Source of the DNA: Candidatus Thorarchaeota archaeon
GTDB taxonomy: Archaea > Asgardarchaeota > Thorarchaeia > Thorarchaeales > Thorarchaeaceae
DNA length: 47,633 nt
Assembly (NCBI GenBank): GCA_048884965.1
Contig: JBHLQH010000024.1
Span: 1-47,633, forward strand
Direction: 5' to 3'
The notes beneath the pieces are model-generated. The model saw only the letters and a list, made by a program, of their open reading frames with translations. It ran no database searches and had not been told where the DNA came from. Shown in pieces: positions 3,268 to 47,633 of the stretch (the stretch's first letter is position 1; each line of letters begins with the position of its first letter). The position numbers and the translations under genes are program-made.

Positions 3268-6027
3268 TTGGCACTTCTCGGATATTCGGATGGTCAAAAG
3301 AGGCAACGGAGATTGATCACTCTCTTCTGCTTCATGATCACAAGCTCGATATTCATGAGCACCTTGGTTTTTGTTGATTCATATTCACTGTACAGATGGA
3401 ATGAAGATGTCAATGTAGGACCCGCTGCTATAATTGTTAGCGGCCAAGGATACATGGAAAATCAAGTAGCAAAGATAGCTAATGTTGAGGGTATCACAAA
3501 AGCGGCTCGGTTGAATGGAGCTTTCTTCAACATAGAATCGATGTACAAGCATTTGAAATGGAGCCAAGGACTCGAAGCAGTGGTGTACAACGAGGCATTT
3601 CAAGCAGCGTTCCCCAGTATATTCAGCTTCATCGAAGGAAGAGCACCTGAAAATGAAAATGAGGTCGCTGTGTCGATGTTAGCAGTGAATCTTCTCTATC
3701 TTGAATTGAATTCTCCAGTAAACTATTCGATCGATTTTACAGAATCATCAACAAACGCAATCGTAGTGGGAATCTATGATCATGGGAGTCTCAATACATC
3801 GCAGACATGGATGTATAGACGAGGTGATTTCATGATTCACTCCTCGTTTTATACTACTTACACCTTCGATTTAGTCTATGCGGATATTGACAGATCAAGA
3901 ATAACGCCAACAAATCCAAAAGGTGCATTGATGTTCTTGAATGAGGTCGAAGTAGCAATCTATGATATTGACCCCAGTTACAAGTTCACAGGTAGGTCTC
4001 GCTACACAGTATTCAATTCACTCGTGATGGGTATTGAGGACTATGACGAATATCTAGGGAATCTGAGATTCACTCAACTATATCGAACGGGTGGCCTTTT
4101 GTTACTAGGGTTTTCCACTATATATCTTGCAATAAATTATGTGCTCAAGCAAAGAGCCTTCGAAACGAATATGCTTATTGCCCGTGGAGCTTCTATTAGA
4201 AGAACTCGATTTATGGTTAGCATCGAGCTAGTCATTTCATCAATTCTTGCCGCACCAGTTGGGATACTATTCGGCATTATAATGAGTCGGGTAGCGATGT
4301 CAGCAACAGGATACCTCCAATTCGATTTCTCACGAATCCTGACCCAACCTATCCTAATCAGCATAGAAACAATCCTCTATTCTATCCTAATTGGAATAGG
4401 TGCTCCACTCATACTGCTGATTTCCCAAGAAACTGAAAGATCAAGATACTCCACTTCAGAAGCAAAACCAAGCAAGTTTGCACGAATAGTTGAAAGTTTG
4501 AATTTCATCAGCAGCGATGCAGTCTTGCTGGCATTCAGCGTCTTACTACTAGCTGCACTCAATTCGGGAGGCACCATTGTTGCTGCGAATCCAGTCTTCT
4601 CAGCGATGATTGTGTTGTTGCCTTTTGCACTGTTCTTCTCACTTACAAGTATACTACTCAAAGCACTCCGGAGAGGTACACTCTATGTATCCAGAGCCTT
4701 CAGCAAAATCTTTGGAAAGATTCCTTCTGCAGTAGGAATAAGAAAGATCGAGAAGCAATCATCCACATCACTCTTGTTGGTAATCGTTCTTGTTCTAGCA
4801 ATGAGTCTGAGTTGGAACTATGCAATCAATTCCGCAACCTTGCCCACAACTAGATTGAACCAAACCAGATTCGCAGTTGGTGGAGACATCGCATTTCATC
4901 TAGATTCTGACGCAACAGAAATGTGGGATGACTTTATTGGAAATGCAAGTTTCTTAGAGGCATCATCTGTTGGTTCACTTGTAACCGAATTTCCACTATC
5001 TCTATCATCTGGAACAGAGGGACTCTATGACTTCGTTTGTATTCAGCCAGAAGAATATCTCAAAGTAGGATACGATTCACAAGGTTCAGAACTAAACTCA
5101 TCTGTGATTTCGGATTATCTCATTCAACTTCAAATGACAGAAGACGGAGCGATCATAACTCAAGATATTGCTGAGAGTTATGGACTAACAGCAGGAAGTG
5201 TCCTCAGAGCATTCTGGCAGAATCGTTCTGAAACTGAAACTATCGAATTCAGCATCATAGGAGTTGTTGATGCGATCCCGGACTCCCTGACCTTCTCGCA
5301 AGGCTATAATCCGTATCCAGGACTTAGTTGGACATATCAAGTTGGAGCAAGTAGAATCTGGGTGAATCAGAATTTCATGGAAGCAATCATAGATTCGATT
5401 CCAGACATCAATTACGTCTATTGCATGAGAATGCCCAAAGGAACAAACACTTCACTATTTGTTTCGCAACTCCTTGAAATTGAAGCAAGTGAAGCTATTC
5501 TCAACGATGAATGGGTTTCTGCAGAACTCGAGGTGGAAAAGTACCTTTCTCAGGAAAGTTACGAGTTAGATCGTGCCTCTGATTCACTATTTACAATACT
5601 TAGCATAACTACAATATTTGGAACCTTTACAGTTTACTCCTTTGAAGGCATTAGATCCAGAAGAAGAGAGATCGCACTCCTTAGATCTCTGGGTGCTGAT
5701 ACATCACTGGTCCTGAAAACTCAAGTCAGTGAGATGACAGTCTTGACACTGATGAGTATCCTGTTGCTGCTAATCTTTTCCCCTATTTTAGCAGTCAACA
5801 CACTTATCTCCGCTGTGAGAACCTATGGAGGTGTATCTTACATCTTCCCCTCAGTACTCTCGGTGGTGTTTCCTTGGCCCCTGCTCTTCTCCATACTGTC
5901 CTTCTTTATAGGATGTGTAGTCATATTCATTTTCTTCATAGCTTTTCTTGGAGCTAAGATTAGTTTGAGTGAGACTCTGAACTATACGTGGACAGAGGCA
6001 GGACCATACACAGAGGAGGTGTACTAA
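3268..6027 (+). CDS. FtsX/MacB-type ABC transporter permease
   Basis: 919 aa. FtsX motifs ETNMLIARGAS and RRREIALLRSLGA, two extracytoplasmic domains. TTG start preceded by AGGAG. Confidence 0.85.
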   Translation: MALLGYSDGQKRQRRLITLFCFMITSSIFMSTLVFVDSYSLYRWNEDVNVGPAAIIVSGQGYMENQVAKIANVEGITKAARLNGAFFNIESMYKHLKWSQGLEAVVYNEAFQAAFPSIFSFIEGRAPENENEVAVSMLAVNLLYLELNSPVNYSIDFTESSTNAIVVGIYDHGSLNTSQTWMYRRGDFMIHSSFYTTYTFDLVYADIDRSRITPTNPKGALMFLNEVEVAIYDIDPSYKFTGRSRYTVFNSLVMGIEDYDEYLGNLRFTQLYRTGGLLLLGFSTIYLAINYVLKQRAFETNMLIARGASIRRTRFMVSIELVISSILAAPVGILFGIIMSRVAMSATGYLQFDFSRILTQPILISIETILYSILIGIGAPLILLISQETERSRYSTSEAKPSKFARIVESLNFISSDAVLLAFSVLLLAALNSGGTIVAANPVFSAMIVLLPFALFFSLTSILLKALRRGTLYVSRAFSKIFGKIPSAVGIRKIEKQSSTSLLLVIVLVLAMSLSWNYAINSATLPTTRLNQTRFAVGGDIAFHLDSDATEMWDDFIGNASFLEASSVGSLVTEFPLSLSSGTEGLYDFVCIQPEEYLKVGYDSQGSELNSSVISDYLIQLQMTEDGAIITQDIAESYGLTAGSVLRAFWQNRSETETIEFSIIGVVDAIPDSLTFSQGYNPYPGLSWTYQVGASRIWVNQNFMEAIIDSIPDINYVYCMRMPKGTNTSLFVSQLLEIEASEAILNDEWVSAELEVEKYLSQESYELDRASDSLFTILSITTIFGTFTVYSFEGIRSRRREIALLRSLGADTSLVLKTQVSEMTVLTLMSILLLLIFSPILAVNTLISAVRTYGGVSYIFPSVLSVVFPWPLLFSILSFFIGCVVIFIFFIAFLGAKISLSETLNYTWTEAGPYTEEVY

Positions 6028-8846
6028 TGTTTCTGATGTCACGGCTTACATCTAAAACACCGCAGTTATTGGTAACGCTCCTAGTATTCTCACTTTCATC
6101 AGGAGTCCTTGGAGGCTTACTTTTCTATATGGACTCGACGAGCTCAGAGGTCTTAGAGGAGATGACTGAGTACTTGCCTGTGGATATGGAAATCAAGTGC
6201 ACACAGACATTCTATGAAAGCACAGCCATAACATTAGACACTATTCTAGATGTGGTAAAGGAGCAATCAATAGTTGAAACAGCAGAAGCAGTCATAGCCA
6301 TAGAAGGGTTCGATAGGCTACTTCCAGAGGGGCAATTCCGAAGCTACGTGTATCTTGGAGTGGACGATTCTTTCTTCACTTCGTTTGGCGATTCCATCGA
6401 GCTCCTGCCAGAAGCTCTACCACTCTCTCAGAATTCATGCTATATTGAATCAGCTCTATTTGAATTCTATAATCTTGAGATAGGAAGTACATACACTGCT
6501 AATGTATTCTATCGCGATGCAAACTATCAGACACATCGTGATAACCGCACTTTCATCATCGCAGGGCAATTCAAATCTTCATTCTTCACAACTGACTCTG
6601 AATCAGAAGCAGACCCGTCGTCATCGCTCCGACTCATCACCACAAAAGATGGAATGCAAGATCATTTTGGTTTTGTTGGTCAATCTAGTACAGATGGCAT
6701 TTTTGATAGAATCTGGATGAAGTTTGATTCGGATTTTATACTTGAAAATAATCCAAATGTCGTTGAATCCGCGTTGGATGACATAAAGAAGAAAATTGAG
6801 CAAAGAATCCTTCCATTCGCATCTGTAACTGAATTCGAGATTCTCGGAGTCGTTTATGGTTACAATTCATGGGCATCAACAATGACCGTAATCGCTCTAG
6901 CATTTTCTATACCGACCCTTGTCATGGGCATGATGCTCGTCGTAAATAACTCTCAACTCAATGAAGATGATAGGCGTAGAGATTTGGGCACCTTGACCAC
7001 ACGTGGTTCATCAGGGTGGCAATCGTTCAATTGGGTTCTTAGCAATGCATTGGTCACGGGAATCGTTGGTAGTTTTGGTGCAGTGCTCACAGGGGCACTT
7101 TCTGCGATATATTCAGGAGGCGTGAAGGAGTTTCTTCAATTTGACAATGCTAACTCATTGAACTTCAGCCTACTCTTGGAACCAACATCAATAGCGGTCG
7201 TTTTCCTATTCTCTTTCACATTGGGATTCATAGTCGCACTTCCTAGTGCCATTAAGGCTCTCCTTATGACTCCAGAAGAAGCGCACCTGATTATTGAGAG
7301 AAGTGCACTTCAGGGAATTGAGAAATTCTCCAATCCACTATGGGAAATCCTTGCAGTCGCAGTTTCAGGATATCTCATCTTCCCGTTGCTATCCATGGTC
7401 CTCTATGGGAATTTTCCGCCAACGACATTTCTCCTCTTTGCTATCGTGATAATCTCCATGTTTGGAGTCTTCATATCATCTTTCACACGGATTCTTTCAC
7501 GACCCACATATATTTTGAAATCAAGGATATTGGGTGTCGTCCGCAAACCATCACTTCGAGCCATCTCGGTAATGATATCAAGATATGTAAGATTGGTAAA
7601 GAATAGCGAGTCACTTGCTGTGATGTTCATTGCATTGATGTTCACATCGGCGCTATTCTCAAGTATTTCAGCAGTCACAGGTGCAACCCATATGCGGGAG
7701 TTGTACCTTTTCGACACAGGCGCAGATGTTGTGATTGATGCAATTGATAACTATGAGAATGTAACATTGGATCTTATCCAGAACTTCACAGCGATTGATG
7801 GGGTTCTAAATGCTAGCGGTATGCTAAGTACTGCAGCACATGTTTCATATCTTCAGATAGTTCAAGGGGAAGTCCTGCGTAGAAGCATTCCTCTCTCCAT
7901 CTATGCGGTTCAGCCAAACGAATGGGCGGTCTCGGCATATCTACGATCCTATTTTGCAATGTCTCAAGAGCCGAAAGAAAGCCTATCTTTGCTTGCGGAG
8001 AATGAAACGAATGTAATTTCAACGTTTATGCCGTATCTATACATCACTGGAAATACGCCTCTCTACCATCCAAATTTAACAATTAATTTTGTAGGACCTC
8101 CAACAAATGTGACCTTCTTTGGTAACTTCAGCTACAACTATACGATTGTTGATTCCTTCTCTAGCAGCTATTCACTGAATTCTGTGAACTATATGCCCGG
8201 TGAAGCGCAATCCATTGATTTCATTATAATGAACTTGACCCGTGTTCATGCCCTATTGAATACATCACGAATTAGTAGATTCTACTTAGACATTGATGAT
8301 ACAAAGAATGTTACACAGATAGTTGAAGAACTACGTGCTATTGCTCCATCGAGTCTTCAAGTGATATCGACTCAAGAACGGATTGACAATCTATTAACTT
8401 CAAGAACTAGTCAATCGATAAATGGAGTATACAGTCTGAATGTGATCTTTGCACTGACCTACTTGGTGATAGGAATTACCATCATCAGTGTTGTGAGAAC
8501 ACATCGACTTCAAAAATACTACTCCATTCTTCGGGCGTTTGGTTCACACACAAGATCAGTCCTCTCTTCAATCGTGCTGGACTCGTTCCTTAGTGTGTCA
8601 GTAGGTTGCTTGATTGGATTATTCCTAGGACTGTATCTATCCAATCTAATTTTGCAACTGCCGCTTGTATTTCTGGGGCTATCTGGAGATATTACTTGGA
8701 CAAGGTTGCCAATTGAGCTGATTCTTCCATCATTCCTCATAGGAACTATACTATTCATCGGGTATGCTTCGGCAATCCTCTCAGTCATAGTTACGACAAG
8801 AAGAGCACTATCTGGAAACATTGCTGACGATTTCCGACATGAATAG
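6027..8846 (+). CDS. FtsX/MacB-type ABC transporter permease, paralog of the first permease
   Basis: Start reassigned to ATG 6027, which overlaps the upstream TAA (TAATG) and follows a GGAGGTG SD. Motifs RRRDLGTLTTRGSSGWQ and YSILRAFG closely parallel the gene at 2..2245. Confidence 0.85.
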   Translation: MFLMSRLTSKTPQLLVTLLVFSLSSGVLGGLLFYMDSTSSEVLEEMTEYLPVDMEIKCTQTFYESTAITLDTILDVVKEQSIVETAEAVIAIEGFDRLLPEGQFRSYVYLGVDDSFFTSFGDSIELLPEALPLSQNSCYIESALFEFYNLEIGSTYTANVFYRDANYQTHRDNRTFIIAGQFKSSFFTTDSESEADPSSSLRLITTKDGMQDHFGFVGQSSTDGIFDRIWMKFDSDFILENNPNVVESALDDIKKKIEQRILPFASVTEFEILGVVYGYNSWASTMTVIALAFSIPTLVMGMMLVVNNSQLNEDDRRRDLGTLTTRGSSGWQSFNWVLSNALVTGIVGSFGAVLTGALSAIYSGGVKEFLQFDNANSLNFSLLLEPTSIAVVFLFSFTLGFIVALPSAIKALLMTPEEAHLIIERSALQGIEKFSNPLWEILAVAVSGYLIFPLLSMVLYGNFPPTTFLLFAIVIISMFGVFISSFTRILSRPTYILKSRILGVVRKPSLRAISVMISRYVRLVKNSESLAVMFIALMFTSALFSSISAVTGATHMRELYLFDTGADVVIDAIDNYENVTLDLIQNFTAIDGVLNASGMLSTAAHVSYLQIVQGEVLRRSIPLSIYAVQPNEWAVSAYLRSYFAMSQEPKESLSLLAENETNVISTFMPYLYITGNTPLYHPNLTINFVGPPTNVTFFGNFSYNYTIVDSFSSSYSLNSVNYMPGEAQSIDFIIMNLTRVHALLNTSRISRFYLDIDDTKNVTQIVEELRAIAPSSLQVISTQERIDNLLTSRTSQSINGVYSLNVIFALTYLVIGITIISVVRTHRLQKYYSILRAFGSHTRSVLSSIVLDSFLSVSVGCLIGLFLGLYLSNLILQLPLVFLGLSGDITWTRLPIELILPSFLIGTILFIGYASAILSVIVTTRRALSGNIADDFRHE

Positions 8847-46118: not shown

Positions 46119-46370
46119 ATGAGAAGAGGTAGTCTGAAGGGATTTGCAGGGAGCATTACTAGAGTCGTCAACATAAAAGGTACAAAAGAGGAATTTTTCA
46201 TTAAGGGTCATGAAAATTCGACCTTTGAGGAAGCGATTCGACAATCATGGCCATATGAAAACAACGATCTAAAGAAGAAATGGAAAGTAGTTGCTTCATC
46301 AGGGGAAGATCTCACAAAACGAAAGATCTCAAGCTATGATGAAACTGTCATTCTTGAGTTCCTCTCATGA
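46119..46370 (+). CDS. Small protein with putative ubiquitin-like beta-grasp fold, no C-terminal GG
   Basis: 83 aa. By-eye correspondence to ubiquitin: ENSTFEEA vs PSDTIENV, WKVVASSGEDLTKRKISSY vs QRLIFAGKQLEDGRTLSDY, ETVILEF vs STLHLVL. Confidence 0.5.
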   Translation: MRRGSLKGFAGSITRVVNIKGTKEEFFIKGHENSTFEEAIRQSWPYENNDLKKKWKVVASSGEDLTKRKISSYDETVILEFLS

Positions 46371-46523: not shown

Positions 46524-47558
46524 TCAACTCAAGAAACAGTGAGGGTCTTTTGAAAAAGCATCGCCGCTTTCGCCAAATGCAACTCCTCTGCAGCCTCCAC
46601 AGATGAGAACTTTTTCGCATTGATTGCAGGCAAGATTTGATCTGTTTCTCAAGCGGTTCATTATTGGAGATGAAATCCAAATATCAAGCAGACTTGAATC
46701 AAAGACATTTCCAGCTTCTATGGGGAGCCTGCGACAGGGATAGACTGTTCCGTCCGTAAGTACATCTAAAATTAATTGACCTGCGGAACAACCTGCAAAG
46801 TCATTCTTAGAGGGTTCAACGATTTCCCAAAGGGGATCTCGTTTAACAATCTCAACGAGACAATTTTTCGACATACGCTCAAGTCGCTCAAATGCATCAT
46901 TTACTTCTGATGCTGATAGATTCTCTGAGTCTATTTGACAACCATTCCCTAGTGGTATGAATCGACCAAAAGCCACTCGTTTAACTCCCAAGCTCTCAGC
47001 GAGCTCAATCAGAGATTCAAGGTCACGAAGATTTCGCTTCATGAGTGTGAGCATGACAGTCACTTCGATACCTGCGCTGACGAGCAGTTCAATCCCACTT
47101 GTAGCAGATTCAAATGATCCTGGACCTCTAATGGAATCATGAACACTCTTCATTCCATCCAAGCTGACCTGCACATAGCGAACCTTTGATTTCTGTAGCT
47201 CATGTGCAATATCCTTCGTTATCAATGTCCCATTCGTCAAGACACGGGGAACCAATCTTTCTCGAATTAGATGCTGAATTGCCCTGATTAGATGAGGCCA
47301 GAGGAGAGGCTCGCCGCCTGTTAGATATACCGTCCCTTCAACCTTGCCAATCCTTAGGATATCCTTGAACTGAGAAATGATGCTCTGAAACCTATCAAAG
47401 CTCAAATCATCTGTCCAAGATTCACTATAACAATGAGAACATCTAAGATTGCATTGCTCAGTTACGTGAAGTTGTAGAGCAAATGGCTGAGAGGAACTCC
47501 GAATAAAGATGACGGGAGTTTCAGAAAGAAGAACGCAATCCCTATTGACGCCATCCAT
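46524..47558 (-). CDS. Radical SAM/SPASM domain protein, putative peptide maturase
   Basis: CNLRCSHC, TGGEPL, LTNG, QVSLDG. SPASM: CSAG..DGTVYPC..GN..CNQC-x5-CGGCR..DPHC. Confidence 0.92.
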   Translation of the reverse strand: MDGVNRDCVLLSETPVIFIRSSSQPFALQLHVTEQCNLRCSHCYSESWTDDLSFDRFQSIISQFKDILRIGKVEGTVYLTGGEPLLWPHLIRAIQHLIRERLVPRVLTNGTLITKDIAHELQKSKVRYVQVSLDGMKSVHDSIRGPGSFESATSGIELLVSAGIEVTVMLTLMKRNLRDLESLIELAESLGVKRVAFGRFIPLGNGCQIDSENLSASEVNDAFERLERMSKNCLVEIVKRDPLWEIVEPSKNDFAGCSAGQLILDVLTDGTVYPCRRLPIEAGNVFDSSLLDIWISSPIMNRLRNRSNLACNQCEKVLICGGCRGVAFGESGDAFSKDPHCFLS

Positions 47559-47561
47559 ATT

Positions 47562-47633
47562 CTAGCCACCGCACCCTCCACATCCTCCACAACCTCCACA
47601 TCCTCCGCAGCCACTACAGCCACTGCATCCACC
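47562..47633 (-). CDS. 3' end of an unannotated Cys/Gly-repeat ORF (...GGCSGCSGCGGCGGCGGCGGCGG*), candidate RiPP precursor; 5'-truncated by window edge
   Basis: Minus strand reads ggt gga tgc agt ggc tgt agt ggc tgc gga gga tgt gga ggt tgt gga gga tgt gga ggg tgc ggt ggc TAG. Variation is mostly at third codon positions. The stop lies 3 nt before the radical SAM ATG. Confidence 0.8.
   Translation of the reverse strand, partial: GGCSGCSGCGGCGGCGGCGGCGG

Follow-up and report, generated by a model that had tools for sequence, protein, structure and literature searches.

We analysed the gene pair at the end of a 47,633-nt stretch of DNA from a Candidatus Thorarchaeota archaeon (assembly GCA_048884965.1, contig JBHLQH010000024.1). 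This stretch, hereafter the window, is the entire contig C24 of its genome (G000). We call "carrier" the Cys/Gly-tailed membrane protein, of which only the last codons lie in the window, and "enzyme" the radical S-adenosylmethionine (SAM) protein with a SPASM domain that is encoded beside it. The features of the pair within the window are the following, all read on the minus strand.

47565..47633, minus strand: C-terminal Cys/Gly tail of the carrier, last 23 codons (GGCSGCSGCGGCGGCGGCGGCGG); the rest of the 493-aa gene is off the contig
47562..47564, minus strand: TAG stop codon of the carrier, by direct reading
47559-47561, minus strand: 3-nt spacer AAT between the carrier stop and the enzyme ATG
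46524..47558, minus strand: complete radical SAM/SPASM gene, 344 aa plus stop, ATG at 47558-47556
47430..47453, minus strand: C-x3-C-x2-C motif CNLRCSHC of the enzyme, codons 36-43, for the SAM-binding [4Fe-4S] cluster; C36, C40 and C43 invariant in 14 homologues
46536..46790, minus strand: SPASM region of the enzyme, codons 257-341; C257, C275, C311, C314, C320, C323 and C341 invariant in 14 homologues

The tail peptide (minus strand, 47633-47565) reads GG-(CSG)2-(CGG)5 and is composed of C, G and S only, with seven Cys at a strict 3-residue spacing, each of them preceded by Gly. The original prediction, made from the letters of the window, had described a minus-strand (C-x-G)n end with seven Cys whose stop lies 3 nt before a complete radical SAM/SPASM gene, and direct reading confirmed it. 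The open reading frame (ORF) is open at the contig end, where the assembly cuts it, and this would explain why the ORF track of the window missed the tail. In the 4.09-Mb genome there is no second Cys-periodic ORF of this kind.

The tail is selected at the peptide level, as had also been predicted, and three observations lead to this conclusion. Synonymous codons are mixed (TGT:TGC is 4:3 for Cys, versus 53:50 in the long ORFs of the window, and GGA/GGT/GGC/GGG is 7/3/3/1 for Gly), with a codon use near the window background; the period-9 self-identity of the tail DNA is only 0.77; and five orthologous tails keep the peptide despite differences at third codon positions.

Reconstruction of the carrier

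The exact protein sequence of the enzyme is present on four other public contigs. The sister contig L104, which is 99.45% identical to the window over 1,646 overlapping bases and contains the exact 72-nt tail, encodes an identical enzyme and a complete 493-aa carrier (P0191), with its stop 3 nt before the enzyme ATG. In the own genome, a contig continuing the repeat was sought by shared 12-mers and by Cys-rich contig ends, which gave nothing useful. A profile search with the tail-trimmed carrier found its N-terminus at the end of contig C64, precisely at this position:

C64:12008-12928, plus strand: N-terminal piece of the carrier, 307 codons; matches residues 1-307 of P0191, 303/307 identical

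The carrier gene is split between the ends of C64 and C24, and residues 308-470 fall in the gap (about 489 nt lost). Independent assemblies of this population break at or slightly upstream of the tail (0 nt upstream of it in the window, 54 nt in L105, 72 nt in L103 and 237 nt in L102), and L104 alone spans the region. These breaks in the C-terminal half of the carrier may come from strain variation or low coverage.

By its profile matches, the full ORF is identified as a 493-aa membrane protein of the DUF2207 family, and not as the short leader and core of a ribosomally synthesised and post-translationally modified peptide (RiPP) that the original prediction had put forward. The leader was expected beyond the window; the rest of the gene does lie there, but it consists of 470 membrane-protein residues and holds no leader. 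With the full-length gene in L104 and the N-terminus on C64, we rejected the short-RiPP reading at this locus.

The family assignment was made with the Pfam model PF09972 (DUF2207), whose gathering score is 24.4 bits. The own-genome piece reaches 27.1 bits (C64:12161-12553), as the sole such match in the genome, and P0191 reaches 24.4 bits, exactly at the cutoff. The model is matched by 14/41 wider relatives, and the orthologue P0001, taken by itself in Pfam, gives a sub-threshold DUF2207 match (E 0.058). The companion model PF20990 (DUF2207_C) has no match on P0191 at E ≤ 0.1 and is matched by 4 of the 41 relatives, with a best E of 1e-10. The AlphaFold model of P0001 has a mean pLDDT of 68, with about 90 across the beta-domain and less than 50 in the tail, and the ESM-Atlas fold nearest to it is a cluster of DUF2207 + DUF2207_C proteins (PF09972+PF20990; 318 residues aligned, TM score 0.43). 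When the Asgard carrier profile was compared by hhalign with the bacterial DUF2207 carriers, the expected region was aligned at 1.5% probability, from shallow alignments.

The topology was predicted with a simple scan of hydropathy and charge. From the N-terminus on, the protein would have an N-in signal anchor, an ectodomain of about 190 aa that is acidic and folded as a beta-sandwich, and a transmembrane helix; a basic loop in the cytoplasm would follow, then a helical hairpin, a C-terminal domain of about 100 aa that is again cytoplasmic, and the (Cys-Gly/Ser-Gly)7 tail. In short relatives, a single transmembrane helix is followed by a K/R-rich stretch and then by the tail. This predicted layout suggests that the tail faces the cytoplasm, where radical SAM enzymes work. 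As for other tailed families, P0001 has no match to TIGR04222 at E ≤ 10, and a resemblance of the tail to heterocycloanthracin cores (NCBIfam, E 0.14, sub-threshold) was rejected as compositional.

Conservation of the pair

At E ≤ 1e-70 the enzyme was found in 7 of 400 Asgard genomes, this one included, and all 7 have a Cys/Gly-tailed protein directly upstream on the same strand. The carrier is 493-520 aa long in the loci of the Thorarchaeota/Njordarchaeota type and 291-297 aa long in two more distant loci. The tail-trimmed carrier profile, run on the same 400 genomes, gave 9 matches, namely the same 7, a carrier cut by a contig end, and the genome G185, in which a tailed 321-aa carrier adjoins the enzyme. 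Hence, in these genomes, every enzyme has a carrier and every carrier that could be judged has an enzyme. Metagenomic orthologues show the same arrangement, and in one protein (P0002; L225:3001-5556, a JGI contig) carrier, tail and radical SAM/SPASM enzyme are fused in a single frame of 851 codons. P0002 has an in-frame ATG five codons past the tail, and its enzyme part might also be made separately. Six other species of the genus were searched and none has the pair, so we consider it an accessory module.

Genes for a RiPP recognition element (RRE), PqqD, a peptidase or an exporter had been proposed as something to look for, and none is conserved near the pair. Precisely, no third gene (RRE/PqqD-like, peptidase, exporter or methyltransferase) is shared among the window, C64, L004, L014 and L016; carboxypeptidases, an aminotransferase, a C39-like peptidase, a methyltransferase and other neighbours were seen in one locus or lineage only.

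Homologues of the enzyme at 28-40% identity are common outside the Asgard archaea. We examined 80 loci from GTDB species genomes: in 14 of them an ORF with a Cys/Gly/Ser tail ends a short way upstream of the enzyme gene, in one (L030) the tailed ORF was slightly under the filter, and in four there is a tailed ORF nearby. The partners of these relatives are DUF2207 proteins of 290 aa and of 500-740 aa, proteins with DUF2207_C only, TPM-domain proteins and ORFs of 49-55 aa. The latter, which are not called as genes (L018:3303-3452 and L021:3304-3471), encode one hydrophobic helix and a (C-x-G)n tail ending in CGD, and lie directly upstream of radical SAM/SPASM genes in a Wallbacteria genome and in a JGI contig. 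What all partners have in common is a membrane anchor with a Cys/Gly(Ser) tail behind it, and nothing else. The original prediction had proposed that homologues of the enzyme be examined for such upstream tails, and they were found in the 7/7 Asgard genomes that have the enzyme and also in metagenomic and bacterial relatives.

The carriers themselves were searched more widely. A first word-based homologue search was swamped by low-complexity candidates and gave 3 matches, and it was replaced by an exhaustive search with the tail-trimmed profile against 1.84 billion representative proteins. It found 68 relatives of the Asgard carrier. Of these, 66 were new, among which 35 have a terminal Cys/Gly tail and most of the others are fragments.

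Some further observations concern single loci. The loci of the 49-55-aa ORFs have two spermine-synthase-like membrane proteins upstream and PspA and DUF350 genes downstream, flanks which hint at a membrane-stress context. Just after the radical SAM gene of L021 there is a called 56-aa ORF of (A/V)ATASQ repeats (L021:4493-4663, plus strand), with CCCLT repeats on the opposite strand; low-complexity DNA is a more probable explanation for it than a second substrate. In a metagenome-assembled genome of Betaproteobacteria, two tandem Gly/Cys-tailed proteins of the 300-aa class (L066:4009-4959 and 5047-5937, minus strand) lie beside one radical SAM/SPASM gene, hence one enzyme may serve several tailed substrates. 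Another carrier type is represented by P0004 (ENA, 550 aa), an unrelated zinc-ribbon multi-pass membrane protein with the same type of tail (…CSGCSGCSSCSSCGGCGGCGGCGD).

Anatomy and relatives of the enzyme

The enzyme has the Pfam domains Radical_SAM (E 1.7e-24) and SPASM (E 1.9e-9), with the radical SAM core beginning at residue 32. The seven SPASM cysteines are those expected for two auxiliary [4Fe-4S] clusters, so that three clusters are predicted in total. By profile matches, the nearest solved structures are SkfB, PqqE, CteB and anSME. The matches to SkfB, CteB and SuiB begin past the RREs of these proteins (chain residues 98-125; residues 17-20 of the query profile), and the match to anSME begins at the anSME N-terminus. 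In agreement with the Pfam domain limits, these alignment starts indicate that the enzyme has no RRE.

Among the NCBIfam families, the best score was obtained with ACGX (TIGR04340), at 185.4 bits in an end-to-end alignment against a cutoff of 400; an orthologous enzyme scores 180.8 bits on the same model. SbtM (TIGR04082) was second, with 175.8 bits over profile positions 195-516 only and a cutoff of 350, and AhbD was third, with 158 bits and a cutoff of 500. Taken together, the AhbC/AhbD/NirJ models give the enzyme 158, 129 and 126 bits, against cutoffs of 500-650. The 25 best families, with 72 bits or more each, do not include the CrpC family (TIGR04463). The nearest homologues of the enzyme are named Candidatus Thorarchaeota, and the Asgard origin that had been proposed from the letters alone agrees with this.

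We built a maximum-likelihood tree of the enzymes, in which reference Ahb or NirJ sequences were not placed. The tail-linked enzymes form three supported clades, one of 8 Asgard rows (SH-aLRT 100), one of 19 bacterial rows (SH-aLRT 99; 18/19 paired) and one of 6 mixed Asgard and bacterial rows, and the tail-free enzymes form a separate clade of 47 rows. The three tail-linked clades are connected by a weak backbone, so we make no claim of a single origin. On the AhbD/NirJ/AhbC models, the members sampled from the tail-free clade reach 295-334 bits; for the tail-linked enzymes, no NCBIfam family was reached at E ≤ 1e-58. By these comparisons, the enzyme is a member of an uncurated clade whose members adjoin Cys/Gly-tailed membrane proteins.

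Proposed function of the pair, and its neighbourhood

We consider it likely that the enzyme oxidatively modifies the cysteines of the carrier's cytoplasmic tail, giving either thioethers or SbtM-like thiooxazoles. The main argument is that the tail is the sole element common to all carrier types, and for this reason the tail itself would be the target. The two best NCBIfam families, ACGX and SbtM, are Cys-peptide maturases, and this likeness in sequence points in the same direction. The original prediction had named a modified Cys-rich protein tail as its fallback, and the genetic evidence, as far as gene content and order can tell, favours that reading.

In the mechanism that we propose, the cytoplasmic enzyme would take the flexible tail of the membrane-anchored carrier as its substrate and would use the 5'-deoxyadenosyl radical to oxidise it at or beside its cysteines. 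One outcome would be sactionine-type thioether crosslinks from Cys-S to Gly-C-alpha, for which the acceptors are limited to Gly C-alpha or Ser; the other would be an SbtM-like thiooxazole ring at each Gly-Cys. Either outcome would produce a rigid or metal-binding appendage, and no computation chooses between thioether and thiooxazole. A complex was predicted from the enzyme, the carrier's last 89 residues, SAM and three 4Fe-4S clusters; its score of 0.02 speaks neither for nor against binding. More tentatively, and with considerable doubt, each Gly-Cys could become a thiooxazole (or the tail a ladder of Cys-to-Gly thioethers), to give a Cu/Fe-chelating, membrane-tethered poly-heterocycle; the enzyme would then be the anaerobic radical SAM counterpart of the O2-dependent MNIO enzymes that are linked to similar tails in aerobes.

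Several points weigh against a modification of the tail. The enzyme scores below every curated family cutoff, hence its chemistry cannot be transferred from a known family, and it has no recognisable substrate-recognition domain. The ranthionine acceptor motifs C-x-x-D/Q are absent from the tail, and Gly would be only a putative sactionine acceptor in it. One relative of the enzyme (L020) has no tailed neighbour, the fused form P0002 is known from a single contig, and in the own genome the two halves of the carrier gene are on different contigs with 163 codons unseen. The predicted topology depends on a hydropathy scan of a simple kind and on a model of medium confidence (pLDDT 68, <50 in the tail), and the modification is proposed from genes and comparisons. 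Finally, repeats of Cys-x-x-Cys are well known as ligands of metals or Fe-S clusters, a role for which they may need no modification.

A converse test bears on this last point. We ran a strict scan for (Cys-Gly-Gly)4-stop over all GTDB species genomes, which gave at least 120 stretches. Among the matches listed, 63 genomes had a readable ORF of this kind, and in only 8 of them did the fetched stretch contain such a radical SAM gene, a low share that also counts against the proposal; 7 of these 8 genes were within 650 nt of the tail ORF. The enzyme-less tails listed were mostly in aerobes such as Streptomyces, mycobacteria, Chryseobacterium, cyanobacteria and Planctomycetota. Since most of the listed genomes (55/63) have no radical SAM gene of this type, the Cys-Gly-Gly tail is a generic feature of membrane proteins, with a role of some kind that needs no such enzyme. 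A large upstream protein with a generic tail had been named beforehand as an outcome that would speak against the original prediction. It was found in part: the protein is large, and (CGG)n-stop tails are common and mostly enzyme-less, but homologous enzymes do have tailed neighbours.

These figures argue for a different explanation, on balance rather unlikely, in which the tail is an unmodified metal or Fe-S site and the enzyme is linked to it otherwise (for example by docking at the membrane, by receiving clusters or electrons via the tail, or by acting on another substrate such as a lipid or cofactor). The periodic cysteines, typical of metal ligands, and the lack of an RRE are consistent with it, and the authors of the CrpA study suspect metal binding as the end function (PMC13692751). 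Against it, the pairing survives a full replacement of the carrier, down to ORFs with a helix and a tail only, and the nearest families of the enzyme are maturases of Cys-containing peptides. The strict co-occurrence and the fusion also fit an enzyme-substrate pair, though a stable complex would fit them too.

A classical RiPP, that is, a short leader with a (C-x-G)n core that is matured by the radical SAM/SPASM enzyme, cleaved and exported, is very improbable. Some bacterial relatives of the enzyme have RiPP-sized partners, and the enzyme resembles sactipeptide and ranthipeptide maturases; however, here and in all Asgard orthologues the tail ends a membrane protein of 290-520 aa, the neighbourhood has no conserved RRE, PqqD, peptidase or exporter, and in the short bacterial forms, too, what accompanies the tail is a hydrophobic helix and not a leader.

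We give still less credit to an AhbC/AhbD/NirJ-type tetrapyrrole enzyme that lies beside the tail by coincidence. AhbD is the third-best family, and one homologue is labelled 'AdoMet-dependent heme synthase' at source. This reading is contradicted by the score of the enzyme, far under the AhbD cutoff, by the much higher scores of the tail-free archaeal homologues, which form their own clade, and by the tailed neighbour conserved in every orthologue. The original prediction had named a grouping with the Ahb enzymes as a possible objection, and neither the low scores nor the separate tail-free clade bear it out.

Finally, a non-coding DNA microsatellite or contig-end assembly artefact has a practically negligible probability, because, although the repeat lies at the extreme end of a contig, where Tandem Repeats Finder detects arrays of period 9, the same 72 nt recur in four other assemblies or runs, the codons are synonymously scrambled within and between orthologues with the peptide kept, and the frame runs into a conserved 493-aa protein.

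Radical SAM/SPASM maturases have been studied almost only on small peptides; protein substrates are known in a few cases, those of QhpD (QhpC), of anSME and, since 2026, of CrpC. The system described here belongs to none of the curated enzyme families tested, and it would work like a Cys-directed radical SAM/SPASM maturase with a protein substrate. The ACGX system (TIGR04340), reportedly defined computationally by Haft, has as partners small peptides with A-C-G-X units, and we know of no chemistry established for it. As in that system, a radical SAM/SPASM enzyme without RRE is paired in archaea with short-period Cys repeats; unlike it, the score here is 185 bits, under the cutoff of 400, and the (C-G-G)n tail is on a 493-aa membrane protein. 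With anSME (PDB 4K36-4K39) the enzyme shares a compact, RRE-less architecture of radical SAM and SPASM domains. The anSME enzymes act on a Cys of a full-length protein by C-beta hydrogen abstraction, at a C/S-x-P/A-x-R motif, and make one formylglycine per protein; this motif is absent from the tail. Compared with sactipeptide and ranthipeptide systems, the C-x3-C-x2-C motif and a seven-Cys SPASM domain are present, whereas a short precursor, an RRE or PqqD and a conserved peptidase or exporter are not.

CrpC of Methanococcus voltae, a radical SAM enzyme with a SPASM domain, introduces ranthionine thioethers into the 28.8-kDa Cys-rich protein CrpA (PMC13692751, 2026). In both cases an archaeal radical SAM/SPASM gene is beside a protein-sized substrate (a putative one here) with its Cys in a C-terminal repeat, so that a protein and not a peptide is, or would be, modified. 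However, CrpC has an RRE and belongs to TIGR04463, while our enzyme has no RRE and falls outside that family; moreover, CrpA is soluble and has 17-residue repeats with C-x-x-Q/D acceptors, while here there are a membrane protein, a 3-residue repeat and Gly/Ser acceptors only. SbtM oxidises the Cys or selenocysteine of a conserved Gly-Cys motif to a thio(seleno)oxazole, with a loss of 4 Da (PMC9204691). Every Cys of the tail is likewise within a Gly-Cys; in contrast, the enzyme scores far under the SbtM cutoff of 350 and lacks the SbtM N-terminal region of about 195 residues, and the SbtM substrate is a selenopeptide and not the tail of a membrane protein.

The nearest parallel on the carrier side is given by the TIGR04222 membrane proteins with Ser/Gly/Cys tails, which are often, not always, encoded beside an MNIO enzyme (DUF692) and were proposed, from bioinformatics only, as MNIO substrates (PMC12452194, 2025); MNIO enzymes form the same heterocycle, a thiooxazole, in bufferins (PMC12452194). 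They too are integral to the membrane, with a large domain on its extracytoplasmic side, and their unstructured tail of Gly and Ser contains Cys. That system has an O2-dependent MNIO, mostly in aerobic Actinomycetota, and tails predicted to be periplasmic, whereas here we have an O2-sensitive radical SAM enzyme, a tail predicted to be cytoplasmic and a carrier of DUF2207 and not TIGR04222 type. The own genome, which is 95.7% complete, has no match to the MNIO model PF05114.

In the open literature, we found no paper joining DUF2207 and radical SAM, nor ACGX and radical SAM. The pair is present in Asgard archaea and in many anaerobic bacteria; it spans several bacterial phyla, with gut Bacillota among them, its carriers are interchangeable, and it bears on the function of DUF2207 and TPM membrane proteins and of their Gly-rich tails. 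The Gly/Cys-rich tails that are so common on DUF2207, TPM and TIGR04222 membrane proteins would gain a first functional handle if the more tentative poly-heterocycle were true. If the proposed modification is true, the flexible cytoplasmic tail of an integral membrane protein would be a new class of substrate, of which we found no description in the literature searched. The pair would also define an enzyme clade whose substrate recognition needs no RRE. The comparison with MNIO suggests aerobic (MNIO) and anaerobic (radical SAM) solutions to the modification of Cys-rich tails, and the 49-55-aa partners would be natural minimal substrates for biochemistry.

Some neighbouring genes were also inspected. 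Upstream of the carrier, contig C64 encodes a 441-aa class-I methyltransferase, an ATC-hydrolase-like protein and a 148-aa protein without family (L236:3060-4385, 4465-4962 and 5982-6428), none of which recurs in the orthologous loci. On the other side of the pair, an 83-aa ORF (46119-46370, plus strand), which has no significant Pfam match (JmjC, E 0.04) and is not conserved beside orthologous pairs, is convergent with the enzyme gene and is an annotated gene in three sister contigs.

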